Assembly: GCA_024644505.1 (NCBI GenBank) | Contig: JAHEHQ010000001.1 | Coordinates: forward strand, 1-28,820 | DNA length: 28,820 bases | From: Gammaproteobacteria bacterium | Lineage (GTDB): Bacteria > Pseudomonadota > Gammaproteobacteria > Chromatiales > Chromatiaceae | Direction: 5' to 3' | In this document: positions 3,734-28,820 of the stretch, in pieces | Numbering within the stretch: the stretch's first letter is position 1 | Layout of the letters: each line of letters opens with the position of its first letter | Made by a program: the position numbers and the translations under genes | The notes under the pieces: generated by a model | The model's database searches: none | What the model saw: only the letters and a program-made list of their open reading frames with translations | Told to the model about the DNA's origin: nothing

Positions 3734-4828
<1,095 letters not shown>

Positions 4829-4872
4829 TTATGGTATGTTTTGGGAGTTGTTTGAAAAGTTGGAAGTACATC

Positions 4873-5799
4873 ATGAATGGATCGATGAGGTTTCTCCAAA
4901 TAATACTGGTGCTGCTGCTCTCCTCGAATGCATGGGGCGCGGGACTGGAGGTACAGAAAGTTTCAGACCGGGTTTATGCCCTCGTCGGGGAAACCGCACA
5001 AAGGTCACCCGATAATCTCGGTAACAACGCCACCTTCGGTCTGGTCATCACCGACGAAGGGCTGGTACTTATAGACCCGGGCGGCAGCGAAAAGGGAGCG
5101 GCAATGCTGGATGCCGCCATTCGCACCGTATCAACCCGGCCCGTGGTGCTGGTCATCAACACAGGCGGCCAGGATCATCGCTGGCTGGGCAATCACTACT
5201 GGAAAGCGCGGGGTGCCCGGGTGATCGCCTCGACAGCGGCAGTTGAGGACCAGAAACAGCGCAGGGACCAGCAACTGGCCGCGCTCAGCCGCCTGGTTGG
5301 CGATGAGGGCATGGAAGGCACGGTACCCATGTATGCCGATCAAACCTTCGGGGAAACACACCGAATGGAGATGGGCGGCGTCCGTTTCCGGCTGCATCAC
5401 GCAGGTCAGGCCCACACGCCTGGCGATATCTATGTGCTCCTGCCCGATGAAGAGACGATCTTTACCGGTGATATCGTCTATCACGACAGGCTGCTGGGCG
5501 TAGGCCCGCAATCCAACAGCAAAAGCTGGCTGGAAGTGTTCGGGGAGATCGAGAAACTGGGCCCGGGCAAGGTCGTACCCGGGCACGGGAGGGCGGGATC
5601 GCTCGAGAAGTCCCGCCGGGAGACGGGCGATTATCTGCGAACCCTCAGGGCCAGGGTGGCGGAGTTCCTGGATCAGGGCGGCACCCTGGAGGAGATCAGC
5701 CGGGTGGATCAGTCGGAATTCCGTTTTCTGGCGGTTTTCGATCAGATTGCCGGCAGAAATGCACACCAGGTGTTTCAGGAGATGGAGTTCGACTTTTGA
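4873..5799 (+). CDS. Exported MBL-fold metallo-hydrolase, SoxH-like
   Basis: Sec-type signal peptide (MRFLQIILVLLLSSNAWG) and MBL motifs LVLIDPG, NTGGQDH, AHTPGD, FTGD and VVPGHG. Start is ATG 4873 or 4885. The SoxH-like label is from recall of the family, not a search. Confidence 0.85.
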   Translation: MNGSMRFLQIILVLLLSSNAWGAGLEVQKVSDRVYALVGETAQRSPDNLGNNATFGLVITDEGLVLIDPGGSEKGAAMLDAAIRTVSTRPVVLVINTGGQDHRWLGNHYWKARGARVIASTAAVEDQKQRRDQQLAALSRLVGDEGMEGTVPMYADQTFGETHRMEMGGVRFRLHHAGQAHTPGDIYVLLPDEETIFTGDIVYHDRLLGVGPQSNSKSWLEVFGEIEKLGPGKVVPGHGRAGSLEKSRRETGDYLRTLRARVAEFLDQGGTLEEISRVDQSEFRFLAVFDQIAGRNAHQVFQEMEFDF

Positions 5800-5800
5800 A

Positions 5801-6154
5801 ATGAAAACTGTTTCCCAGGCTGTTTTCGATGTGGACGAGCAGGGATTTCAGGATCGGGTCATCGAGGCCTCGAAACAGAAGCCTGTTCTGGTGGATTTCT
5901 GGGCCGAGTGGTGCGCCCCCTGCCTCTCCCTGGCCCCCGCGCTGGAGCGGGTAATCCGGGAACTCGACGGCACGGTGGACCTGGCCAAGGTGGAGGTGGA
6001 TGACAATATGCGCCTTGCCGGACACTATCGCCTTCGGGGATTCCCCACCGTGATCATGTTCTACCAGGGGCAGGAGCTGGGGCGTTTCAGCGGCTCCAGG
6101 CCGGTCCACTGGATCAGGGACTGGATAGACGAGCACGCCGGGCAGCAGCTCTAG
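5801..6154 (+). CDS. Thioredoxin family protein (WCAPC)
   Basis: Motifs VLVDFWAEWCAPC, LAKVEVD and RGFPTV. ATG lies 1 nt after the MBL stop. No signal peptide. Confidence 0.92.
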   Translation: MKTVSQAVFDVDEQGFQDRVIEASKQKPVLVDFWAEWCAPCLSLAPALERVIRELDGTVDLAKVEVDDNMRLAGHYRLRGFPTVIMFYQGQELGRFSGSRPVHWIRDWIDEHAGQQL

Positions 6155-6299
6155 TGGGTCGCCCACCAGGAGGCTGTTGGCGAAACTGTAGGGTCGAATT
6201 CATTCGACCTGCTGTCGGCCAAATATCACTAAAGTTTTCCCTCTGCCTGCCGACACCCATATCAAGTATTACGGGTTGTTTTGAACTCGTACTCAGGGG

Positions 6300-6334
6300 C
6301 CTCGGTGACCGGTGCAGTTTACCGGTCACCGAGG
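6300..6334. repeat. Perfect 14 bp inverted repeat
   Basis: CCTCGGTGACCGGT-gcagttt-ACCGGTCACCGAGG. Confidence 0.9.
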
Positions 6335-6383
6335 GACTCCGGCTCAATTGATCCTCCTCCGGCGCCACAAAAATGGCGCTTTC

Positions 6384-6418
6384 AGGGCTCATCTTCTCCC
6401 CAGATGAGCCCTTTTTTT
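6384..6418 (+). terminator. Rho-independent terminator, + strand
   Basis: AGGGCTCATCT-tctcccc-AGATGAGCCCT forms an 11 bp stem running into TTTTTTT. There is no U-tract in the minus direction. Confidence 0.8.
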
Positions 6419-6980
6419 ATGCTCTGATCAGCTTGCCGGTCCTCAGATCCCGAATGCTGGTGGGTGAGTCCGCCCCGCTTACGTCGCCGTGCACGATGAA
6501 ATCCACGGCGGACCCGAACATCAGCCTCACCCGCAGCGCATTTTGTGCCGGTGGCCGTCCCGCCGGATTGGCACTGGTGGAAACCAGGGGGGAGTCACAC
6601 GCCGTACACAAGGCTGCGGCCACCGGATGCGCCGTGACCCTGACCGCCAGGGTGTCGTGGGAACCGCTCAGCCAGCCCGGCAGGGCCGGGGCTGCCGGAA
6701 GCAGCCAGGTGTGAGGGCCGGGCCAGCTCTCCAGCGCCGGCCTAAGCCGTGCTTCGTCCACCTCTGCGACATAGGGGCGCAACTGCTCGAAGCGGGCCGC
6801 GATCAGTATCAGCCCTTTCTCAACGGGACGCTGTTTCAGCTCCAGCAGCCGATATACCGCTGCACCGTCCAGGGGATCGCAGCCCAGTCCATAGACGGCC
6901 TCCGTGGGATAGGCAATGATGTCTCCCCGGCGAACAGAACGGGCGGCCTCCCTGATACGGCCGGAACCGAATCCTTTCAA
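6417..6980 (-). CDS. tsaC: L-threonylcarbamoyladenylate synthase (YrdC/Sua5 family)
   Basis: Motifs IAYPTEAVYGLGCDP, LKQRPVEKGLILI, WPGPHT, LAVRV and VSTSANPAG. The TTG start overlaps the purE TGA (TTGA). Confidence 0.94.
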   Translation of the reverse strand: MKGFGSGRIREAARSVRRGDIIAYPTEAVYGLGCDPLDGAAVYRLLELKQRPVEKGLILIAARFEQLRPYVAEVDEARLRPALESWPGPHTWLLPAAPALPGWLSGSHDTLAVRVTAHPVAAALCTACDSPLVSTSANPAGRPPAQNALRVRLMFGSAVDFIVHGDVSGADSPTSIRDLRTGKLIRA

Positions 6981-7483
6981 CCCTTCAGTTCTGCCTGCAG
7001 CTGGGCATCCTTTGCCTTCACCGATTCGGCGTTTGCCTCTCGATCCGCCTTGACCCGCCCGGCCAGGGCCGGATCCACCAGGGACATGATCTGCGCGGCC
7101 AGGTAAGCGGCATTCTTTGCACCCGGCTTACCCACGGCCACCGTGGCAACGGGAATACCGCCCGGCATCATCACCGTCGAAAAGAGGGAATCCATACCCT
7201 GCAGGGGCCCCGCGTCCAGGGGAATACCGATCACCGGCTTGACGGTCAGACCGGCAACCGCCCCCGCCAGATGGGCCGCGAGCCCGGCGGCGCATATGAA
7301 CACCACGCATCCCCGGGCATCGGCATCCTTGACATAGGCATGGGTCGCGTCCGGCGTGCGGTGGGCGGAGGTGATCTTCGCCTCGAAGGGTACCTCGAGA
7401 TTTTTCAGGACATCCATGGTGGACTGCATCACCGGCAGGTCCGAGTCCGAGCCCATCAGGATAGCGACAAAAGGTTTGCTCAT
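6977..7483 (-). CDS. purE: N5-carboxyaminoimidazole ribonucleotide mutase
   Basis: Motifs ILMGSDSDL, SAHRTP, AGLAAHLAG, PVIGIP, MPGGIPVATV and NAAYLAAQI. Start placed at ATG of MSKPF. Confidence 0.95.
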   Translation of the reverse strand: MSKPFVAILMGSDSDLPVMQSTMDVLKNLEVPFEAKITSAHRTPDATHAYVKDADARGCVVFICAAGLAAHLAGAVAGLTVKPVIGIPLDAGPLQGMDSLFSTVMMPGGIPVATVAVGKPGAKNAAYLAAQIMSLVDPALAGRVKADREANAESVKAKDAQLQAELKG

Positions 7484-7561
7484 TGTTTTACGGCTCAATA
7501 TCAGTTTGAAAAGCGTTTAAAGATACCTGATTTTCGGTCCACAGGCCATGCTGGTACTCCG

Positions 7562-9388
7562 TCAATATAATAGTGACGGAGTACTGGCCTCACCCAGAGA
7601 ATGGCTGCGAAGCAGATCCAGAAATCGGCTTCCATAGCGTTTGAGCTTCTGTTCGCCCACACCGCTGATGCCGCGCATCTGCTCCGGGTTCTCGGGCTGT
7701 CGTTCCGCCATCTCATGCAGTGTCCTGTCGTGGAAAATGATATAGGGGGGCACCCCCTGCTCCCTGGCGATCTCGGTGCGCAGGTTTCGCAGGGCATCGA
7801 ACAAACCCGGATTCCGGGTTTGTATCGGAGGCTGTTTCGCCGGTTTCTTCGTCTGTTTTTCCCTGGGCTTGTGCTTGCGCAACTGCAGCCCCGTTTCACC
7901 CCGCAGCAGCGGCCGGCAGGTCCCGCTCAGGCGCAGCGCACCGTAGCCCCCCGGATCTATGTCGATATAACCCCGGGAGATCAGCTGACGAAACAGGCTG
8001 CGCCACTGCGCGACGCTCTGCTCCCCGCCGATGCCGAAGGTACTGATCCGGTCATGGCCATTGCGGCGGATGCGTTCATCCGCTTTTCCCCGCAGCACGT
8101 CGATCACATAATTCACCCCGAAACCCTGGCCCGTGCGGTAGACGCAGGAGAGTGCCATGCGTGCGTACTCGGAGGCATCCCAGGTCTGTGGGGGCCTCAG
8201 GCAGTTGTCGCAGTTGCCGCAGGGTTCTTGCCGGGTCTCGCCGAAATAGGCCAGCAGGGCCTGCCTGCGGCAACCGGTCAGATCACAGAGCCCCAGCAGG
8301 GATTCGAGCTTTTGATGGGCAATGCGTTTGAACTGCTCCTCGGCATCGGTGTCAAGAACGAACTGGCGCAGCGTGATGAGATCCTGCAGCCCGTACAGCA
8401 TCCAGGCATCCGCCGGTTCACCGTCCCGGCCCGCGCGGCCGGTTTCCTGATAATAGGCCTCCACACTCTTGGGCAGATTCAGGTGGGCGACGAACCGCAC
8501 ATCGGGCTTGTCGATCCCCATACCGAAAGCAATGGTCGCAACAATGACCAACCCGTCTTCCCTCAGGAATCTCTCCTGGTGAAGCCTGCGCTCCTCCTGG
8601 GAGAGCCCGGCATGATAAGGCAGGGCGGTTCGTCCCTTATCACACAGCCAGTTCGCCACCTCATCCACACGTTTGCGCGACAGACAATAGATGATCCCTG
8701 CATCGTCGGGGTGCTCCCGCTCCAGGAAATGCCACAACTGGCTCTTGGCGTTCACCGCCTCGCCTATGCTGTAGCGGATGTTCGGCCGGTCGAAGCTGCT
8801 GACGAACTGTCCCGCCCTGTGCAGATCGAGCTGATCGACGATCTCCCTGCGCGTGCGCATGTCGGCGGTTGCTGTCAGGGCGATGCGGGGAACCCGGGGA
8901 TAGCGTTCGTGCAGAACGGACAACTGCTGATAATCCTTTCGAAAATCATGTCCCCACTGGGAAACGCAGTGTGCCTCGTCGATGGCGAACAGGGCGACCT
9001 CCACCCGATCGAGAATACTCAGCATCTGGGGCATGAGCAGCCTCTCCGGTGCCACATACAGCAGGCTCAATTCGCCGTCGAGCAGATCCTGCTCGACCTG
9101 CCTTCGGCTCCGGGCATCGAGACTGGAGTTGAGGAAGGCCGCAGAGATGCCGAGCTGGCGCAGGGCGTCCACCTGATCCTGCATCAATGCGATCAGGGGA
9201 GAAACTACAATACCCACACCTTCCCGCACCAGGGCGGGAATCTGATAACAGAGGGACTTGCCGCCCCCGGTCGGCATCAGGATCAGGGCGTCGCCCCCAT
9301 TGATCAATGTCTCGATCACTTCCGCCTGGTTGTGGCGAAACCCATCGAATCCGAACACATCCTTGAGAATACGCCTGGCCTGCTCCAT
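7562..9388 (-). CDS. recQ: ATP-dependent DNA helicase RecQ (with RQC and HRDC domains)
   Basis: Motifs [61 protein letters not shown]...CGNCDNC and [19 protein letters not shown] upstream. Confidence 0.98.
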
Positions 9389-19292: not shown

Positions 19293-19867
19293 CTGAGGTT
19301 TATGGAAACCTGAAAACGTCTGCGGTTCGGTTTCTGTTACTGGTGCCTCTGCTGCTTCTTTCCCTGCCTTCCCAGGGTGAAGAGTTCCTGGTGAACGACC
19401 TTTCCACCAGACTGGTGGATGACACCTACCTGATGAATGCCAAGATCGAATACCGGTTCTCCGAAAACGTACTCGAGGCCCTGCAGAACGGTGTGCCCAT
19501 CACCCTGGAGATACATGTGCAGATTCGCCGCAAGGGGGCCTGGGTGTGGACAAAAGACCTGCTCGATTTTCGCTCACGCTACCAGATCCGCTATCACGCA
19601 CTGGCCTCGGTCTATCAGGTACTGGACCTGCAGTCCGGGAATCAGCAGAACTTTGCAACCCAGAGTTCGGCTCTCGATGCCCTGGGCAACATCGCCGACC
19701 TGCCGCTGTTGCGCAGCACCGACATGGAACCCGGCGAAACCTACATCCTGGCTGTACGCACCAAACTGGATATTGAGTCCCTGCCCCTGCCGTTAAGACC
19801 CGTCGCCTATGTCACCCCATCCTGGCGCCTGAACAGCGAGTGGAGCGAATGGCACCTCGAGCCCTGA
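19289..19867 (+). CDS. DUF4390 family exported protein
   Basis: ATGA overlap with the rsmB stop, hydrophobic signal segment, ALQNGVPITL, LDIESLPLPLRP and W.L.SEW. This is the usual gene between rsmB and ntrY-like kinases. Confidence 0.85.
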   Translation: MTEVYGNLKTSAVRFLLLVPLLLLSLPSQGEEFLVNDLSTRLVDDTYLMNAKIEYRFSENVLEALQNGVPITLEIHVQIRRKGAWVWTKDLLDFRSRYQIRYHALASVYQVLDLQSGNQQNFATQSSALDALGNIADLPLLRSTDMEPGETYILAVRTKLDIESLPLPLRPVAYVTPSWRLNSEWSEWHLEP

Positions 19868-22071
19868 AGCGTCTGACGAGCCGGGCGCTTCCCGTGGGTA
19901 TTCTGCTCGCGCTGATGATGCTGGCATTGCACCTGATGAGCAGCGCGGTTCAAAACACCGAGGAGCTGAGCAGGCTGTTCGTCCCGCTGCTGCTGGCAAC
20001 CGCCCTGGGCCTGTTCGCGTTGGTGATCATGGTCGCCATCAACCTGTTTCAGCTGGTGAGCAGATACCGACAGCAGGCGGCCGGTTCGAGATTGACACTG
20101 CGCATGGTGGCGATATTCGTGGTGATTTCGGTGGTCCCCGTAACCGTCGTCTTTTACTACTCGCAACAGTTTCTCATGCAGGGCATCGACAGCTGGTTCG
20201 ATGTGCAGATCGACCAGGCGATGGAAAGCGCCCTGAATCTGAGCCAAGCCTCACTGGATCTTCACAAGCGGGAAAGGATGAAGAGTACACAGCGCCTGAT
20301 GGAGGAGCTGAGCGGGATATCGGTGGCCGGACTGAGCCTCAGCCTTCAGGACCTGAGGGAGAAATACGGAGCAACCGAACTGGCTCTGCTGGAGCCCTCC
20401 GGCCGCCTGGTCGCCGTCAGCAACATCGACCCCACAATACTGGTGCCCGAGGAACCCGACAGCACCATACTGCAACAGGTGCGCGGCGGGGAGGATTTCG
20501 TCGGCCTGGACCCCACCCGCGGCGAAGAGGCTCAACTGCAGGTCCGGGTGGTTATCGGCGACTCCAACCGGGGTCTGCTGCTGCAGGCACTCTATCCCAC
20601 TTCCCTGAATCTCTCTCATTTGACCGAAACGGTACAGGAAGCCTACAACCGCTATAAGGAGCTGTCGTTCCTGCGGGAGAGCCTCAAACAGACCTTCACC
20701 ATGGCATTGGCGCTGGTGCTGCTGTTCGGGCTTCTGACGGCCGTCTGGGCGGCCATCTTTTCGGCGCGGCGGCTGGTGGCGCCCATCACGGATATCGCCG
20801 AGGGTACGCGGGCAGTTGCGAAGGGCGACTACGACACCCAACTCCCCCTGCCGCGGGCCAGGGATGAACTGGGATTTCTGGTTGCCTCTTTCAACACCAT
20901 GATGCGGCGCATCGCCCAGGCAAGGGACGAGGCCGCCGACAGCCAACGTCAGGTGGAAGCCCAGAGGGGCTACCTGGAGACCGTACTGGGCAGCCTCTCG
21001 TCGGGCGTGATGGCCCTGGATGACAAGGGGAACATACGCACCACGAATCAGGCCGCCCTCGACATTCTGCAGGTCAGGCTTGAAGACTATCTCAACCGTC
21101 CCCTGGATGAACTTGCAGGAGCGAGCCCTTTGCTGGGACAGTTCGTGGATGCCATCCGGGAAGTGATCAGCGAGAAAATGAAGGAGTGGCGCGAGGAACT
21201 CACGTTATTCAGCAATGACGGGAGAATAGTGCTCCTGTGCCGGGGCACGCCATTGGCACTTCCGGATGGCAAGGCCTCGGGTTACGTACTGATTTTCGAC
21301 GACATCACCACCCTTATCCAGGCCCAGAGAGACGCCGCTTGGGGTGAAGTGGCGAGGCGGCTGGCCCACGAGATCAAGAATCCACTGACGCCCATACAGC
21401 TTTCCGCAGAGCGGCTGCGTCACAAGTACCTGAAAAAAATGGACCCCAAGGAGGCGGAAGTGCTGGACCGTGCGACCCATACCATCGTCCAGCAGGTCGA
21501 GGCGATGAAAGAGATGGTCAACGCCTTTTCGGACTATGCACGCACCTCGACAATGAACCTGAAATCCCTGGTTTTCGACAGACTGGTCCAGGAAGTTCTT
21601 GACCTGTACAACAGCGCGGGTCTGAGATCCCTGTTCAAATCCCGGCTCGAGGCCGGGGTAGCCCGTATCGAGGCAGATCCGGTGCGTCTGCGCCAGGTGA
21701 TACACAACCTGGTCAAGAACGCGCAGGAGGCGGTGTCCGACGTGAAACACCCCAGGATCGAGGTAACGACCGGGCTGGTACACTCGGCAGACTATCAATT
21801 GATCGAACTCAGGGTTGCAGATAATGGCCCGGGGTTCGATGATGACACCCTGTCCCACCTGTTCGAGCCCTATGTGACCACCAAAGTCAAGGGTACGGGC
21901 CTGGGACTGCCGATCGTGAAAAAGATCGTCGAAGAGCATGGTGGCCTGGTAAGGGCCGAGAACCGGGCCGGCTCCGGCGCCTGTATCACACTCCGTCTGC
22001 CGCTGCCGGTTTCGCGGGAGAGGCTGACCGACGAACCGGCCCTGCGGCCGGTCAGGAGCAAAAACAAATGA
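19849..22071 (+). CDS. ntrY: NtrY-like membrane sensor histidine kinase (HAMP-PAS-HisKA-HATPase)
   Basis: TM helices, HAMP motif DELGFLVASFNTM, WGEVARRLAHEIKNPLTPIQLSAERL, NLVKNA, DNGPG, FEPYVTTK and GTGLGLPIV. GGAG RBS before ATG 19849. Confidence 0.9.
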   Translation: MAPRALKRLTSRALPVGILLALMMLALHLMSSAVQNTEELSRLFVPLLLATALGLFALVIMVAINLFQLVSRYRQQAAGSRLTLRMVAIFVVISVVPVTVVFYYSQQFLMQGIDSWFDVQIDQAMESALNLSQASLDLHKRERMKSTQRLMEELSGISVAGLSLSLQDLREKYGATELALLEPSGRLVAVSNIDPTILVPEEPDSTILQQVRGGEDFVGLDPTRGEEAQLQVRVVIGDSNRGLLLQALYPTSLNLSHLTETVQEAYNRYKELSFLRESLKQTFTMALALVLLFGLLTAVWAAIFSARRLVAPITDIAEGTRAVAKGDYDTQLPLPRARDELGFLVASFNTMMRRIAQARDEAADSQRQVEAQRGYLETVLGSLSSGVMALDDKGNIRTTNQAALDILQVRLEDYLNRPLDELAGASPLLGQFVDAIREVISEKMKEWREELTLFSNDGRIVLLCRGTPLALPDGKASGYVLIFDDITTLIQAQRDAAWGEVARRLAHEIKNPLTPIQLSAERLRHKYLKKMDPKEAEVLDRATHTIVQQVEAMKEMVNAFSDYARTSTMNLKSLVFDRLVQEVLDLYNSAGLRSLFKSRLEAGVARIEADPVRLRQVIHNLVKNAQEAVSDVKHPRIEVTTGLVHSADYQLIELRVADNGPGFDDDTLSHLFEPYVTTKVKGTGLGLPIVKKIVEEHGGLVRAENRAGSGACITLRLPLPVSRERLTDEPALRPVRSKNK

Positions 22072-23435
22072 GTACCTCCCACATCCTGGTGGTTGACGAC
22101 GAACCGGATATCCGGGGCCTGGTAAAGGAGATCCTCGAGGATGAGGACTACACCGTTGTGGCCGCGGACGGCGGGACTGCCGCCAGGCAGGCATTGCGTG
22201 ATCGCCGGCCCGATCTGGTGCTGCTGGACATCTGGATGCCGGACATCGACGGTATATCGCTGCTCAAGGAATGGGCCGAGGACGACGGCCTGCCCTGTCC
22301 GGTCATCATGATGTCGGGACACGGTACGGTTGAAACCGCCGTGGAGGCGACGCGGCTCGGGGCCTATGATTTCCTGGAAAAACCCCTGTCACTGGCAAAG
22401 CTCCTGCTTACGGTTGAAAGGGCCCTGGAGGCCGACAAGCTCCAACAGGAGAATATCGGCCTGCGGCGCCACAGCCAGCCGGTGGTCGAGCCGACGGGCA
22501 AAAGCGCCGTAATTCAGCGCCTGAGAGAGCAGGTCAAGCGCATTGCCCAACACGGAACCTGGGTGCTGATCACCGGGGAACCGGGCAGCGGCCGGGAAAC
22601 CTTCGCAAGATATCTGCACTCCCAGAGTCCGCGCCGAGACCTGCCCTTCATCGAGGTGAGTGTTTCTTCCATCGCAAAGGAGAATTCAGCGCGCGAGCTG
22701 TTCGGCAGCGAGGAAGGGGGTCATATTCATTACGGCGCCCTGGAGCAGGCGCGAAGAGGCACCCTGTTTCTCGACGAGGTGGCGGCCATGGGCATCGAGG
22801 CCCAGGCCCAGCTTCTGGGCGCCCTGGAATCCGGCTCCTTTCTGCGCGTCGGCGGTGTAGAGCCCGTGCAGATCGATGTCCGGATCATCGCCGCGACCCA
22901 GCGTAAACTGGAGGACGAGGTCCAGGCGGGAAATTTCAGGGAGGATCTGTTTTATTATCTCAACGTGGTGCCGCTTCATATACCACCCCTGCGGGACCAT
23001 CGCGAAGACGTACCGGATCTGTTGAACTATTATCTGGACTATTTCGTCGAGCATGAAAAACTGCCCTACCGCAGATTCGATATGAGCGCTCAGAATTTTC
23101 TGCGCAACCATCAATGGCACGGAAACATCAGGGAGTTGAAAAATCTGGTACAACGGTTATTGATACTCGGTGCCGGGGAAGAGATCACTCAGAACGAAGT
23201 GGAGATGGCCATCGGAGGAACGGGGCTTCCCGGAACCGAGGGAGCCGGTTTTCCCGTCTCCTTCGATCAACCGCTGCGCCAGGCCCGGGAGCAGTTCGAG
23301 AAGGCCTATCTGGAGTATCAACTGCACAAACAGTCGGGCAATGTCAGCCGGATGGCATCCGAGGCGGGGATGGAGCGCACCCATCTCTATCGCAAACTGC
23401 GCTCCCTGAATATCGAAATCAAGGACAGGAAATAG
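22068..23435 (+). CDS. ntrX: NtrX-like response regulator (REC - degenerate AAA+ - Fis-type HTH)
   Basis: Motifs ILVVDDE, LLDIWMPD, MMSGHG, FLEKP, GTLFLDEV, RIIAAT and GMERTHLYRKL. ATGA overlap with the kinase. Confidence 0.9.
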   Translation: MSTSHILVVDDEPDIRGLVKEILEDEDYTVVAADGGTAARQALRDRRPDLVLLDIWMPDIDGISLLKEWAEDDGLPCPVIMMSGHGTVETAVEATRLGAYDFLEKPLSLAKLLLTVERALEADKLQQENIGLRRHSQPVVEPTGKSAVIQRLREQVKRIAQHGTWVLITGEPGSGRETFARYLHSQSPRRDLPFIEVSVSSIAKENSARELFGSEEGGHIHYGALEQARRGTLFLDEVAAMGIEAQAQLLGALESGSFLRVGGVEPVQIDVRIIAATQRKLEDEVQAGNFREDLFYYLNVVPLHIPPLRDHREDVPDLLNYYLDYFVEHEKLPYRRFDMSAQNFLRNHQWHGNIRELKNLVQRLLILGAGEEITQNEVEMAIGGTGLPGTEGAGFPVSFDQPLRQAREQFEKAYLEYQLHKQSGNVSRMASEAGMERTHLYRKLRSLNIEIKDRK

Positions 23436-23480: not shown

Positions 23481-24854
23481 GTGAAGATAATCATTCTCGG
23501 CGCCGGTCAGGTGGGCAGCTCCGTTGCCAGTAATCTGGCCTCGGAGGCCAACGACATAACGGTGGTGGACACAAACCCGGAACTGCTGCGGGAGCTTCAG
23601 GACCGGCTCGACCTGAGTACGGTGCTGGGACACGCCGCCCATCCCGATATACTGCTTCGCGCCGGTGCCGAGGATGCGGACATGATCCTCGCGGTAACCA
23701 ACAGCGACGAAACCAACATGGTTGCCTGTCAGGTGGCCTACACCCTTTTCCACACACCGACCAAGATCGCACGGGTGCGGGAATCGGGTTTTACCCGCTA
23801 TCCCCAGCTTTTTGCGGAAGGGGCCCTCCCCGTGGACGTGCTGATAAGCCCGGAACAGATCGTCACAGATTACATCATGCGTCTCATCGAGAACCCGGGT
23901 GCCCTGCAGGTTCTGGATTTTGCCGGCGGCCGGGTAAGGCTGGTGGCGGTGATTGCCTATCACGACGGTCCGCTGGTGGGGCATCAGCTGCGCACGCTCT
24001 ACGACCACATGCCCAATATCGATGCGCGGGTTGCCGCAATCTACCGGAAGGGTCGCGCCATCCAGCCCGAGGGCAATACGGTCATCGAGATCAACGACGA
24101 GGTGTTCTTCATCGCAGCGACCCACAACATCCGGGCGGTGATGAGTGAGCTGCGCAAGCTGGAAACACCCTACAAGCGTCTGATTTTCGCCGGGGGGGGC
24201 AACATCGGCAAACGCCTGGCCGGGGCCCTGGAAAAGAGGTATCAGGTAAAGCTGATCGAGAAGAACAAAACCCGGGCGGAGTCAATCGCCGAGGACCTGC
24301 CGAAGACCATCGTGCTGCATGGCGACGTGGCGGATGAAGACCTGCTGCTGGAGGAGAGTGTGGAGAACACCGACGTGTTCTGCACCGTAACCAACGACGA
24401 TGAGGACAATATTCTGTCTGCCATGCTGGCGAAGCGGCTGGGGGCCCGCAAGGTGATGGCGCTCATCAACCGGCACGCCTACGTGGACATGGTGCAGAGC
24501 AGCCAGATAGACATCGCCATATCCCCCCAGCAGGCCACCATCGGCACGCTGCTGACCCACGTTCGCCGGGGCGACGTGGTGATGGTGCATTCGCTGCGCC
24601 GCGGCGCTGCGGAAGCGATCGAGGCGGTTGCCCACGGGGATATCTCGTCATCCCGGGTGGTGGGTCGATGCATCGAGGAGATCACGCTGCCGAGGGGCGC
24701 GAGCATCGGCGCCATCGTCAGGGGTGAAGAAGTGCTGATTGCCCATCACGACGTAGTCATCGAGTCAGAGGACCACGTGATCCTGTTCCTGATCGACAAG
24801 CGCCATATCTCGGAAGTAGAGCGCCTGTTCCAGGTCGGCATCACTTTTCTATAG
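23481..24854 (+). CDS. trkA: Trk potassium uptake NAD-binding subunit
   Basis: Two RCK_N motifs (GAGQVG, GGGNIG) plus VTNSDETNM and [14 protein letters not shown] start. Confidence 0.97.
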
Positions 24855-24857
24855 GCC

Positions 24858-26309
24858 ATGCAGTTCAGCGCGGTACAACGCATTCTCGGTATCCTCCTGA
24901 TGCTTTTCAGCATCACCATGGTGCCACCGCTCGTGGTGTCGGTCTGGTACCAGGACGGTGCGGCGGCACCGTTCGGCTCGGCGCTGATACTCACTTTCCT
25001 GGCCGGTGCCCTGTTATGGATGCCGGTACGAAAATACAGACGGGAACTGCGGCTTCGTGACGGATTCATGATCGTCGTCATGTTCTGGGGTGTGCTCGGC
25101 CTCATGGGGGCGCTGCCCTTCATGCTCGCCATTCGCCCGGACATGAGCACCACCGACTCCGTGTTTGAATCCATATCGGGCCTGACCACCACCGGAGCCA
25201 CCGTTATCGTGGGCCTCGACCTGCTTCCCCGTTCGATTCTCTATTATCGACAGCAGCTGCAGTGGCTCGGCGGCATGGGCATCATCGTGTTGGCGGTTGC
25301 GGTACTGCCGATGCTGGGCATCGGCGGCATGCAGCTGTATCGGGCGGAGACACCGGGGCCGATGAAGGATTCCAAGCTCACCCCCCGGATCACCGAGACG
25401 GCCAAGGCGCTCTGGTATATCTATCTGGGCCTGACCCTGACCTGCGCCGCCGCCTATTGGGCCGCGGGGATGACGCCGTTCGACGCCCTGGGGCATGCCT
25501 TCTCCACCATTGCCATTGGCGGCTTCTCCACCCATGACGCCAGTATGGGCTACTTCGACAGCACACTCATCGAGATGATCGCCGTGGTGTTCCTGCTCAT
25601 ATCCGGCGTCAATTTCGCGCTGCACTTCGTGGCCTGGCGCCAACGCAGCCCATTCGTCTACTTTCTCGACAGCGAATTCAGATTCTATCTTCTGGTACTT
25701 ATGATGGTGGCGGTCCTGGTCATCACGGCACTTTACTTCGGCGGTACCTATCACGACTGGGGCGAGGCGTTTACCAAAGGCCTGTTCCAGGCGGTTTCCA
25801 TCGGCACCACCGCGGGTTTCACAACTGCAGACTATTCGGTCTGGCCGGGCTTCATTGCCATCCTGCTTCTGTTTTCCAGCTTTGTCGGCGGCTGCGCAGG
25901 CTCCACCGGCGGCGGCATCAAGGTCATCCGTTTCCTGCTCCTGATCAAACAAGGCTTGCGTGAGATTGCCAGGCTGATCCATCCCAGCGCCCAGATCCCG
26001 ATCCGCATCGGGGACAAGACCATCAGTACCCGGGTGATAGAGGCCGTATGGGGGTTTTTCGCCCTCTACGTGGCCAGCTTTGTGACCATGTATCTCGCCC
26101 TGGCCCTTACCGGGCTGGACCTGATGACCTCCTTCTCCGCGGTGGCGGCTTCCATCAATAACCTGGGCCCAGGCCTTTCGACCGTTGGCGTCAACTATGC
26201 CTCCCTGAACGATCCCGCCAAGTGGATACTCTGTTTCGCCATGCTGCTGGGGCGCCTGGAGATCTTCACGCTCCTGGTGCTGCTGTCACCGACTTACTGG
26301 CGTAAGTAA
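24858..26309 (+). CDS. trkH: Trk potassium uptake membrane subunit
   Basis: Pore motifs ESISGLTTTGAT, IAIGGFS, GTTAGF and NNLGPG, plus QWLGGMGII, GGCAGSTGGGIK and MLLGRLEI. Confidence 0.97.
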   Translation: MQFSAVQRILGILLMLFSITMVPPLVVSVWYQDGAAAPFGSALILTFLAGALLWMPVRKYRRELRLRDGFMIVVMFWGVLGLMGALPFMLAIRPDMSTTDSVFESISGLTTTGATVIVGLDLLPRSILYYRQQLQWLGGMGIIVLAVAVLPMLGIGGMQLYRAETPGPMKDSKLTPRITETAKALWYIYLGLTLTCAAAYWAAGMTPFDALGHAFSTIAIGGFSTHDASMGYFDSTLIEMIAVVFLLISGVNFALHFVAWRQRSPFVYFLDSEFRFYLLVLMMVAVLVITALYFGGTYHDWGEAFTKGLFQAVSIGTTAGFTTADYSVWPGFIAILLLFSSFVGGCAGSTGGGIKVIRFLLLIKQGLREIARLIHPSAQIPIRIGDKTISTRVIEAVWGFFALYVASFVTMYLALALTGLDLMTSFSAVAASINNLGPGLSTVGVNYASLNDPAKWILCFAMLLGRLEIFTLLVLLSPTYWRK

Positions 26310-26316
26310 ACGCGAA

Positions 26317-26730
26317 TCAATACGTGATTATCTGGCCCTTGCCGAGTATCGCGTTGAACATGGCATGGAGCGACCTTGCCTCTATGGGTTTGGCAACGAA
26401 TCGGGATGCACCGCAGCGCTCGGCTTCAGACGCCTTTCCCCCTGAAGCCAGTCCGCTGTACAGGATTACCGGCAGACCCGGCTGCAGGCGGTGCAGTTGC
26501 TGCATCAGTTCGGTCCCGACACCGTCGGGCAGATTGTAATCGAGCAGTGCGAGATCGAACCGGGTTTCCGAGATCGCGTCCAGTGCCTCGCCGCAGCTGG
26601 CGGCAGTCGTGACCTGATACCCCAGTTCCTCGAACTCCCAGCGCATCATGCACAACAGGGATTTGTCATCCTCGGTTATCAGCAGCTTTCTGGCGGTCTG
26701 CTGATCGGACTCCCGGGAGTGAGGGGCCAT
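26317..26730 (-). CDS. Stand-alone receiver (CheY-like) domain protein
   Basis: LLITEDD, LALLDYNLPDG, VILYSG and FVAKP show the phospho-acceptor residues intact. No output domain and no evident SD sequence. Confidence 0.88.
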   Translation of the reverse strand: MAPHSRESDQQTARKLLITEDDKSLLCMMRWEFEELGYQVTTAASCGEALDAISETRFDLALLDYNLPDGVGTELMQQLHRLQPGLPVILYSGLASGGKASEAERCGASRFVAKPIEARSLHAMFNAILGKGQIITY

Positions 26731-27264
26731 TCAGGCAACCAGTGTATCGCGCAATTTCTGCTTGGCCCGAAACAGCCGGGTGCCGACACCGGCGGAAGAG
26801 ATACCAATCTGACCCGCTATCTCCTTCTGGGAGTAGCCTTCCACCACCTGTTTCACCAGTGGTACCCGGTATTCCTCCGGCAGGTTGTCGATGGCACGAC
26901 GCAGCACGAAGGCTTCAGTGGAAGTGTCGTAACTGGCCTCCCTGGCCTTGAGTTCGTCCAGCGGAATACTTGCTTCCTGGGGGCGATAACGCTCGAAGCG
27001 CCGCGCATTCTCCCGACGCAGGATGGTAAGCAGCCAGCCCTTGGCGGAATCGATGCTCTGGAGTTTGTCGAACGAACGCCAGGCTCTCAGCAACGCCTCC
27101 TGCACCAGGTCCTCGGCAATGTGCCTATCCCCGGCCAGCCAATAAGCGTATCGCTTCATGTCGGTTTCGTAGCGGGAGATCATGTCATTGAAACGCCGCT
27201 CCCGGGCAAATGCGAAAAAGTCTCTGTTTGTCTGGTTGTTTACTTCCAGGGCGGCGTCGGTCAT
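26731..27264 (-). CDS. ECF-family sigma-70 factor
   Basis: Region 2 motifs RYAYWL, AEDLVQEALLRAW and GWLLTILRRE. Region 4 motif LPEEYR...GYSQKEIA...TRLFRAKQKL. RBS GAGGA. Confidence 0.94.
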   Translation of the reverse strand: MTDAALEVNNQTNRDFFAFARERRFNDMISRYETDMKRYAYWLAGDRHIAEDLVQEALLRAWRSFDKLQSIDSAKGWLLTILRRENARRFERYRPQEASIPLDELKAREASYDTSTEAFVLRRAIDNLPEEYRVPLVKQVVEGYSQKEIAGQIGISSAGVGTRLFRAKQKLRDTLVA

Positions 27265-27314
27265 GGTCGTAGTCCTCTGAAATAATCATTGCAACTCTCT
27301 TGCCCTTAAGAGAA

Positions 27315-27330
27315 TGCAGATGCCATGCCA
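27315..27330 (-). promoter_or_regulatory. Sigma54 (-24/-12) promoter candidate for the ECF sigma gene
   Basis: The minus strand reads TGGCATGGCATCTGCA against consensus TGGCACGNNNNTTGCW, with exact GG-N10-GC spacing, 50 nt upstream of the start codon. Confidence 0.72.
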
Positions 27331-27335
27331 ACTTT

Positions 27336-27348
27336 TAACTAATTGAAT
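27336..27348 (-). promoter_or_regulatory. IHF-like binding site
   Basis: The minus strand reads ATTCAATTAGTTA against WATCAANNNNTTR (one mismatch), in an AT-rich tract just upstream of the -24 element. Confidence 0.45.
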
Positions 27349-27447
27349 TTAATATATTTAATGCCTTTCTAATAGACCTGTTCGTAACAAATCATTACAA
27401 CGATTCGTGGAACTTAACGAAACGTGAAACCCTCCGCCGGTGGCTGT

Positions 27448-28173
27448 TCACACACCCTTTTTGAGCAGACGACGCACCACGGAAAGATGCCGCCGGCTGA
27501 TCTCCAGACGCTCACCCGTGCCTTCCAGGCGTGCCAGGCAGCGCCCGTCCGGTTCCTTATCCAGACCCATCAGGCGCTGTTGCGACACCAGCGCATTGCG
27601 ATGAATCCTCACGAATCGTCCGGCATATCGGTCCTCGAGTGTTTTAAGACTCTCCTCGAGCAGCGCCTCACCCCCGGGATGACAAGCGGTTACGTACTTG
27701 TGATCCGCTCGAAAAAAGATAATTTCATCCAAGGGAATGCGCTTGATGCCACCCCTGTAAACGGTGCTGATATAGTCCTTGACCGGATCCTGGATCGCCT
27801 GGATCTGGGGCCGTGTGGGTACTTGCACTTGGTACAGCGCCTTCTTGAGGCGATAACTTCGAACCGGTTTGAGCAGATAGTTCAGGGCATGCCCCTGAAA
27901 GGCGTGGAGGGCGTGTTCCTCATAGGCAGACACGAAGATGACCGCCGGCGGATTGTCCAGTCGGGCAATCCGCGCGGCCGCCTCGACACCGTCCATGACA
28001 GGCATCCTGATATCCAGCAGAACCAGATCCACCTCCATTGCCTGGCAGCACTCAATGGCCTCACGACCGTTGGCTGCCTCACCGACAACGCGGTACGGCT
28101 CACCCATGTCCAAAAGCATCGAACCCAGGAGCTGCCGCGCCGGCGCCTCGTCATCAACGATCAGAATGTTCAT
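27448..28173 (-). CDS. LytTR-family response regulator (AlgR-like)
   Basis: Motifs ILIVDDEAPAR, LLDIRMPVMDG, IFVSAY, YLLKP, FRADHKYV, FVRIHRNALV and ISRR. Confidence 0.95.
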   Translation of the reverse strand: MNILIVDDEAPARQLLGSMLLDMGEPYRVVGEAANGREAIECCQAMEVDLVLLDIRMPVMDGVEAAARIARLDNPPAVIFVSAYEEHALHAFQGHALNYLLKPVRSYRLKKALYQVQVPTRPQIQAIQDPVKDYISTVYRGGIKRIPLDEIIFFRADHKYVTACHPGGEALLEESLKTLEDRYAGRFVRIHRNALVSQQRLMGLDKEPDGRCLARLEGTGERLEISRRHLSVVRRLLKKGV

Positions 28174-28218
28174 TCATCATTCCACAAATACCAGCTTTAA
28201 TTTTTTAACCCTCTGTAT

Positions 28219-28405
28219 TAGTGCCTGTTAACACTATGCGGATACTCATCGACGGAGGCCATTTTTTCACAGGACAAGGCGCACTGAGCGCAGTGTACCC
28301 GCCGTACATTCGCGGCTCCTGCGCATCCATGCGTCCGCGGCATACTGTACTTCCTGTACATAAGCGAAGTGCAACGCGGTCATGGGGAAAAATGGCCCCG
28401 TCCCT
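28219..28405. mobile_element. Truncated MITE-like palindromic repeat element
   Basis: Begins TAGTGCCTGTTAACACTATGCGGATACTCAT (shared with 13331) and has nested inverted repeats at 28257-28266 / 28388-28397 with internal hairpins. No transposase and no matching right end are seen. Right boundary approximate. Confidence 0.55.
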
Positions 28406-28820
28406 TATTCCTTGATGGGGCATACCTCTGTATACACTTTCCCGGCTATCTTATAGCCGTATATAACACGGTATCGACCCAGCCTCCATAAACCGCACAG
28501 CTAAACTATTCTCCACTTTCTCCCCTGCACGGTACAAGCGACCAAATACCTAATGAGTGTCTGTCCGGAAACAGCATCTTCCGGCATTCGCCGGTATGAC
28601 GTGGTTTCAGGAAAACATGTGCTTTTGGACAGACGCTAACTACTAACCAAGTAGTGGGCCGCGCGGATTCAGCAAATAGAAGTGAAGGCGCGGTATAAAT
28701 GCCGGAAGTGGTGTGAGCAAAATCGATTCAGGCTGGAGGATTTGCCGGGACAGGGCTCCCTATAATCGGTTCGTTCCTGGACTGGACCACCAGTTCATGT
28801 TTCACTTAACAGGGAATCCT

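Follow-up and report, generated by a model that had tools for sequence, protein, structure and literature searches.

A touching ECF sigma factor–receiver gene pair in a Chromatiaceae genome: two genes rather than a fusion, with signs of a sigma-54-driven cascade

Does a stop codon that touches the next start codon in the same reading frame mark a broken fusion, a recoded gene or simply two neighbors? The question is raised by a stretch of 28,820 nucleotides (nt) from a gammaproteobacterium of the family Chromatiaceae (GenBank assembly GCA_024644505.1, contig JAHEHQ010000001.1, positions 1 to 28,820 of the forward strand; here called the window), in which a gene for an extracytoplasmic function (ECF) sigma factor ends in a TGA that directly abuts the ATG of a small receiver gene. 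An earlier note on this DNA offered three readings: a split or nonsense-interrupted sigma-receiver fusion with the domain order of alphaproteobacterial PhyR; a read-through locus making both free sigma and a fused form; or a tightly coupled pair in which the receiver controls the sigma factor directly. The window belongs to an 83%-complete metagenome-assembled genome (MAG) whose closest public relative is a Chromatiales MAG from sediment, and near-identical sequence is present in sediment metagenomes and metatranscriptomes. Our comparison leaves us confident that sigma and receiver are two separate, coupled genes that yield no functional fusion. Four features at the locus bear on this.

26731..27264, minus strand: ECF (group IV) sigma-70 factor gene; open reading frame (ORF) of 177 amino acids (aa) with stop TGA at 26733-26731, assigned by Pfam
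26317..26730, minus strand: single-domain response regulator gene, receiver only; ORF of 137 aa with ATG at 26730-26728, assigned by Pfam
26728..26733, minus strand: TGAATG junction, the sigma stop touching the receiver start with zero gap and in the same frame, by direct reading
27273..27278, minus strand: Shine-Dalgarno sequence AGAGGA, 8 nt 5' of the sigma ATG, by direct reading

Direct reading and the ORF list agreed with the earlier note on the coordinates and on the contact of TGA and ATG in one frame. The 15 nt 5' of the receiver ATG hold no Shine-Dalgarno-like run, again as had been noted, and the AGGA block at the sigma Shine-Dalgarno sequence aligned in 10 of 11 upstream regions. The reads had been proposed as a check on the TGA, and the stop codon is real: over 26250-27450, contigs from two DNA and two RNA-library runs, belonging to three studies, were compared with the window and had no substitution or indel at 26728-26733. 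Since all four runs have the same six nucleotides, the TGA is not a sequencing error. The zero-gap in-frame junction is also found in a strain about 96% identical (run X16). RNA-library contigs span both genes in two of the studies. We considered these contigs as a source for a 5' end and rejected them: the contig of run X3 stops at 27263 with adapter sequence and that of X16 at 27249 with unlike sequence. Because the two end at different places and contigs cannot define the end of a transcript, we claim no 5' end.

Pairs for comparison were gathered from relatives of the window genome, from a motif-based receiver-alignment scan of 185,579 species genomes and from a 300-genome sample of the class. 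A sigma gene lies directly upstream of the receiver in all 15 loci found via the receiver, and further pairs occur in other gammaproteobacterial families, at least seven families in all. The junction between the two genes is far less constant than their order. About six loci overlap by 4 nt (ATGA or TTGA) and three by 1 nt (TGATG); the remaining junctions are gaps of +2, +5, +12, about +13, +31 and +24 to +69 nt, and among the five pairs taken from other families the gap is about +6 to +50 nt. The zero-gap junction was seen at one locus in the comparison series, the window's own. The two genes share a frame at just 4 of 21 junctions, where chance would give 7; the other 17 are out of frame or overlapping. 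Even the nearest relative, with a sigma 93% and a receiver 90% identical, has a TGATG junction, out of frame, at which read-through would enter another frame. Because frame and spacing drift freely among relatives, the in-frame contact of TGA and ATG is an accidental state of a drifting junction, and the junction itself ordinary translational coupling by termination and reinitiation. Linkage kept across at least seven families while the junctions drift suggests selection on co-expression.

A fusion of the two genes was also sought directly, with the conceptual read-through product of 315 aa as query against a set of 1.84 billion representative proteins. No natural sigma-receiver fusion was among the best 150 matches. 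The top matches, checked with Pfam, were single-stretch ECF sigmas (best 211 bits) and multi-receiver proteins. An orthologous fusion would have outscored every listed match, and none stood at the top of the list. The homologues thus gave the earlier note neither the conserved zero-gap in-frame pairing nor the fusions that it had proposed to look for.

That note had also pointed to a palindrome shortly after the TGA, which could in principle stimulate read-through or serve as an operator.

26709..26720, no strand: 12-nt perfect palindrome ACTCCCGGGAGT, judged non-functional

The palindrome is there, and its weight as an element is not. The window holds 16 perfect 12-mer palindromes, against about 9 expected from shuffles. 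The sequence ACTCCCGGGAGT is altered in the nearest relative (G001) and carries two substitutions in the strain of run X16. It has no loop and could form a stem of 4 base pairs (bp) at most. We rejected it in both roles on its chance-level frequency, its lack of conservation and its short stem.

The leader of the receiver fared similarly. A stretch of 14-15 aa precedes the receiver fold, as the earlier note had said, and a linker role for it is not borne out: no other segment of the protein is less conserved (top-residue frequency 0.26), and orthologues have leaders of about 2 to 20 aa.

These results bear on programmed UGA read-through, by which the locus would make free sigma together with a working sigma-receiver fusion of 315 aa. 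Of the three stop codons UGA is the leakiest, and both the window genome and the strain about 96% identical have the zero gap and the common frame that such a mechanism would need. Against this, the nearest species is out of frame, most junctions of the series are overlapping or out of frame, no natural fusion was found, the candidate stimulatory palindrome is unconserved with a stem of no more than 4 bp, and the receiver leader is unconserved. A conserved in-frame downstream ORF with a stimulatory context, as expected of a recoding site, was not found here. Functional read-through is therefore highly improbable and, as far as comparison of sequences can decide it, already largely refuted. A read-through product of 315 aa, if made at all, would be present in traces as a by-product, and the in-frame TGA needs no special mechanism.

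The upstream protein has the marks of a genuine ECF sigma factor. At 177 aa, it consists of regions sigma-2 and sigma-4 only, within the size of about 170-200 aa typical of the group: Pfam finds Sigma70_r2 at residues 28-92 (55.5 bits) and Sigma70_r4_2 at residues 121-171 (53.6 bits), and TIGR02937 (sigma70-ECF), with 80.6 bits, is well over its cut-off of 42.9. Many ECF models match it besides, the best-scoring being NCBIfam PRK12517, with 180 bits under a cut-off of 197. Among 17 orthologues, mean column identity is 64% and 52 columns are invariant. A profile search of the PDB with the sigma returned genuine ECF sigmas in RNA polymerase holoenzymes (SigE, SigL, SigW and SigH) and no PhyR. 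The PhyR_sigma2 model reaches 25.2 bits on the sigma, under its cut-off of 27, while Sigma70_r2 and Sigma70_r4_2 pass, and the NCBIfam PhyR model is absent from the 25 best families listed for either sigma or receiver. The analogy with PhyR drawn earlier thus fails on two counts. The sigma is a conserved ECF factor and not a degenerate decoy of the kind that PhyR models recognize, and the two domains lie in separate polypeptides, with the stop confirmed here and two genes at 20 related loci.

What follows the sigma gene differs between branches of its family. Distant sigma homologues (43-57% identity) are followed by DUF3379 (PF11859), with a coupled junction of the same kind, in all five cases checked. 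DUF3379 is a putative membrane anti-sigma factor found with PRK12517-like ECF sigmas, widespread in Gammaproteobacteria. Our combined non-redundant set holds 23 loci with DUF3379 and 23 with a receiver; DUF3379 junctions are -4, -8 or +2 nt, and receiver junctions are -4, -1 or 0 nt, among others. A maximum-likelihood tree places 21 of the 23 receiver-type sigmas in one weakly supported cluster (85/63) nested among the DUF3379-type sigmas, and a single origin of the receiver type would be compatible with it. The window sigma does not itself belong to the DUF3379-associated ECF subfamily: its PRK12517 match is sub-threshold and the gene downstream is a receiver. PF11859 was not found in the window genome (G000), which is an 83%-complete MAG. 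In gene order, the receiver fills the slot of the putative membrane anti-sigma factor.

This distribution also bears on the possibility that the pair is a recently split or nonsense-interrupted ancestral fusion. The order of domains is that of PhyR, and the PhyR_sigma2 match, weak and below threshold as it is, points the same way. However, sigma and receiver are separate genes at all 20 related loci, and the searches turned up no fused relative; the sister lineages are pairs of sigma and DUF3379, which implies that the ancestral state was two genes; and both proteins are full-length and conserved. Together with the varying spacing and frame and the variable leader, this makes a split fusion exceedingly improbable.

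How, then, is the pair controlled? Upstream of the sigma gene we found two further features.

27315..27330, minus strand: sigma-54 type -24/-12 promoter element TGGCATGGCATCTGCA (TGGCAT-N5-CTGCA), from the pattern TGGCAY-N5-NTGC
27381..27426, minus strand: CGTTA/TAACG-type repeat block, a candidate activator enhancer, from conserved columns in 11 upstream regions

The element at 27330-27315 has the -24 GG and the -12 GC at canonical spacing. An element of this kind is found at 14 of 23 receiver-type loci, with its distance to the sigma gene unchanged, and at none of 22 DUF3379-type loci. The repeat block is located some 50-110 nt 5' of the -24 element and is followed by an AT-rich spacer. Across genera, the -24/-12 element and the repeats are conserved at receiver-type ECF genes and absent from the DUF3379 type.

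An activator that fits such a promoter is encoded close by in several relatives. In five of the compared genomes (G006, G016, G020, G014 and G298) and in Sedimenticola, an NtrC-family activator gene, whose product combines a receiver with Sigma54_activat and HTH_8, lies directly upstream of the sigma gene. The window genome has an orthologue, 74% identical, at an unlinked site (contig C328:4153-5505), where it is followed by hemC and hemD. The orthologue is present in 9 of 10 relatives carrying the pair, the exception being a 69%-complete MAG, and in none of 31 relatives without it. It was also present in all five further carriers, Thiocapsa roseopersicina and S. selenatireducens among them, and in four of five carriers from other families. 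The protein is an AAA+ activator with the Sigma54_activat domain, and we infer both that it acts on the promoter of the sigma operon and what the receiver does. A module driven by sigma-54 and this activator is, in our judgment, quite likely.

In the window genus, the activator's usual place upstream of the sigma gene is taken by a LytTR-type response regulator (28173-27448, minus strand). The junction of this LytTR gene with the sigma neighborhood was also seen in the nearest relative (G001) and in independent DNA contigs. In Pseudomonas, hemCD follow the LytTR regulator AlgR. Since the NtrC-type gene in the compared stretch C328:2653-5899 is followed by hemC and hemD, as AlgR is there, the arrangement looks like a reciprocal exchange of the LytTR and NtrC-type regulator genes upstream of the enhancer. 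On the minus strand at 28174-28820, upstream of the LytTR regulator, no ORF of at least 50 aa runs off the end of the window, so no cognate kinase gene is visible beside that regulator before the contig ends.

The receiver itself is a single-domain, CheY-like response regulator, a bare receiver fold with the residues of phospho-chemistry. Response_reg covers residues 17-125 of its 137 (77.9 bits), and there is no output domain. In 17 orthologues D21, D64 and K114-P115 never vary, and E20 and S92 hardly do. Helix 1 carries a family-specific motif of invariant residues (M28, W31, E34, E35 and G37). Its conservation, 0.75, equals that of the core strands, and the lowest values belong to helix 4 (0.33) and helix 5 (0.44), the usual output face of a receiver. 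In each of five genomes tested, the best genome-wide paralogue of the small receiver is the receiver domain of the NtrC-type activator, and the two have a helix-1 pattern in common, L-x-Q-M-L-x-x-x-F-E-E-x-G.

Taken as a whole, the best explanation that we can offer is a coupled operon in a cascade that runs from sigma-54 to the ECF sigma, in which the receiver provides phospho-dependent feedback; our confidence in this complete scheme is evenly divided. A histidine kinase would phosphorylate the NtrC-type activator, which would open the sigma-54 promoter preceding the sigma gene. With no anti-sigma gene in its branch, the ECF sigma would be active once made and would redirect RNA polymerase to its regulon. 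For the same reason, control would lie mainly at transcription, as it does for HrpL. The co-expressed receiver would compete for the phosphoryl groups of the activator's kinase, resulting in negative feedback, damping or pulse shaping. This role as phosphate competitor is suggested by an activator-like, kinase-facing helix 1 combined with an unconstrained output face, and we put it forward tentatively, as falling a little short of an even call.

Several points weigh against the cascade with its competing receiver. Some Chromatiaceae loci have no recognizable -24/-12 motif within 350 nt, and the adjacency of sigma and receiver is kept more strictly than that of the activator. Taken together, these two observations mean that the sigma itself could be the receiver's primary partner. 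The co-occurrence scoring covered only 41 candidates per genome, and the compared genomes are related, so that its counts overstate independence. As for a cognate kinase, the activator neighborhoods in ten genomes share no conserved gene except the sigma-receiver pair. The helix boundaries of the receiver were set by analogy with generic receivers and not from a model, and the helix 1 common to receiver and activator may reflect common descent instead of a shared kinase.

The strict adjacency leads to a different reading, in which the receiver regulates the ECF sigma directly and in a phosphorylation-gated manner, as a cytoplasmic anti-sigma factor, stabilizer or co-factor that has replaced the membrane protein DUF3379. 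It sits exactly where the anti-sigma gene would be and is translationally coupled in the same manner, the pairing holds at 15 of 15 loci, including those with an unlinked activator or no visible sigma-54 motif, and the window genome, at its 83% completeness, yielded no DUF3379. The conserved helix 1 could be a sigma-binding face, and PorX with SigP is a precedent for a response regulator that binds an ECF sigma, as cited in PMC7826278. No positive sign of contact between sigma and receiver was obtained, however. Co-folding of their alignments scored 0.01 against a mark of 0.32 in a run without controls, and is evidence neither way; receiver-type and DUF3379-type sigmas differ in only a handful of conserved columns, which is uninformative. 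The usual output face of the receiver is poorly conserved, and its nearest paralogue is the activator's receiver domain, which a phosphotransfer role fits at least as well. We regard direct control as a serious but unlikely alternative. The same doubt attaches to its more specific form, in which the receiver would bind the sigma and release or activate it on phosphorylation, a phospho-switchable anti-sigma or co-sigma factor inside a feed-forward circuit of sigma-54 and the NtrC-type activator. Of the tightly coupled pair proposed in the earlier note, then, the coupling has stood, on the 15 loci, the further families and the anti-sigma slot, and the control of sigma by the receiver is hypothetical.

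A passenger receiver, co-transcribed with the sigma gene, serving an unrelated pathway and linked to it by history, must also be weighed. Stand-alone receivers are common and often orphan. Strict linkage in at least seven gammaproteobacterial families, maintained while the junctions drift, and the three-way co-occurrence with the activator both argue against it, and we consider it improbable. The coupled operon in a sigma-54-to-ECF cascade remains our preferred reading.

Other observations concern the surroundings of the pair. On the plus strand of the window, positions 19840-23435 encode an NtrY-like kinase (NtrY_N, HAMP, PAS, HisKA and HATPase) overlapping an NtrX-like sigma-54 activator by 4 nt. 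The NtrX-like gene is followed by trkA (23481-24854) and trkH (24858-26309), and 7 nt separate the end of trkH from the receiver gene, which runs toward it. The block of NtrY/NtrX, trkA and trkH is syntenic in three relatives (G002, G006 and G016), and trkA-trkH also in G001. At 4017-7905 of the G006 locus, the module lies between aprBA-like adenosine-5'-phosphosulfate reductase genes with a DUF423 gene and, on the opposite flank, glcDEF-like glycolate oxidase genes with trkH, a context not conserved elsewhere. One Chromatiaceae MAG (G012, contigs C2 and C68) has two copies of the sigma-receiver pair, with sigmas about 86% and receivers about 73-75% identical, and only one activator orthologue above threshold.

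Among known systems, the closest parallel to the proposed cascade is that of HrpL (ECF32) in Pantoea, Erwinia and Pseudomonas syringae, where HrpX/HrpY act on HrpS, a sigma-54 activator, which in turn acts on the ECF sigma HrpL (PMC8103513; PMC7826278; PMC5263251). Both have an ECF sigma without an anti-sigma gene, a sigma-54 promoter and an enhancer-binding protein within a two-component pathway. The window sigma, however, comes from another ECF lineage, nearest to the PRK12517-like, DUF3379-associated sigmas; the activator of the window module itself contains a receiver and is of the NtrC type; and a stand-alone receiver is co-translated with the sigma, for which HrpL systems have no counterpart. 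The PRK12517-like/DUF3379 systems have a homologous sigma, at 43-57% identity, and a coupled downstream gene in the same position. They differ in that the downstream product here is a cytoplasmic receiver, and in that the sigma-54 promoter and NtrC-type activator go with the receiver type only.

The PhyR-NepR-EcfG system (ECF15) of Alphaproteobacteria also uses sigma-type and receiver modules in ECF control, in the order sigma then receiver. PhyR, though, is one polypeptide whose degenerate sigma-like domain is a decoy that titrates NepR, whereas the window encodes two proteins and a genuine sigma. In Caulobacter, the single-domain receiver LovR, with LovK, feeds back on the ECF pathway of sigma-T. 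SdrG and MrrA are likewise single-domain receivers in alphaproteobacterial ECF pathways (PMC5964349). LovR, SdrG and MrrA resemble the window receiver in that each is a receiver-only protein whose expression goes with an ECF pathway and whose presumed role is to drain or reroute phosphoryl groups. Those proteins act on PhyR phosphorylation, whereas the presumed competitor here is the sigma-54 activator, and the window receiver is encoded inside the sigma operon.

Contact between a receiver-containing protein and a sigma factor is known from RssB, which binds sigma-S. PorX of Porphyromonas, the response regulator binding SigP (ECF228), is the other case. Both have extra output domains and genes outside the sigma operon, and for the window pair such contact is a conjecture. 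The ECF classification paper gives two-component links only for ECF15, 32, 39, 234 and 246, and PorX for ECF228. Our literature search, which did not extend to the supplementary group texts of that classification, yielded no description of a sigma-54 promoter, an NtrC-type activator, an ECF sigma and a co-translated receiver in combination.

The module occurs in sulfur-oxidizing and phototrophic Gammaproteobacteria, including the cultured Sedimenticola selenatireducens DSM 17993 and Thiocapsa roseopersicina DSM 217. In these organisms, an ECF lineage would have given up its membrane anti-sigma factor and gained three things in exchange: a sigma-54 promoter, an NtrC-type activator inherited together with the pair, and a single-domain receiver translated along with the sigma. 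Should the receiver prove to target either the sigma or the kinase of the activator, ECF control would gain a new wiring, and this one sigma family would illustrate how anti-sigma control can naturally give way to two-component control.

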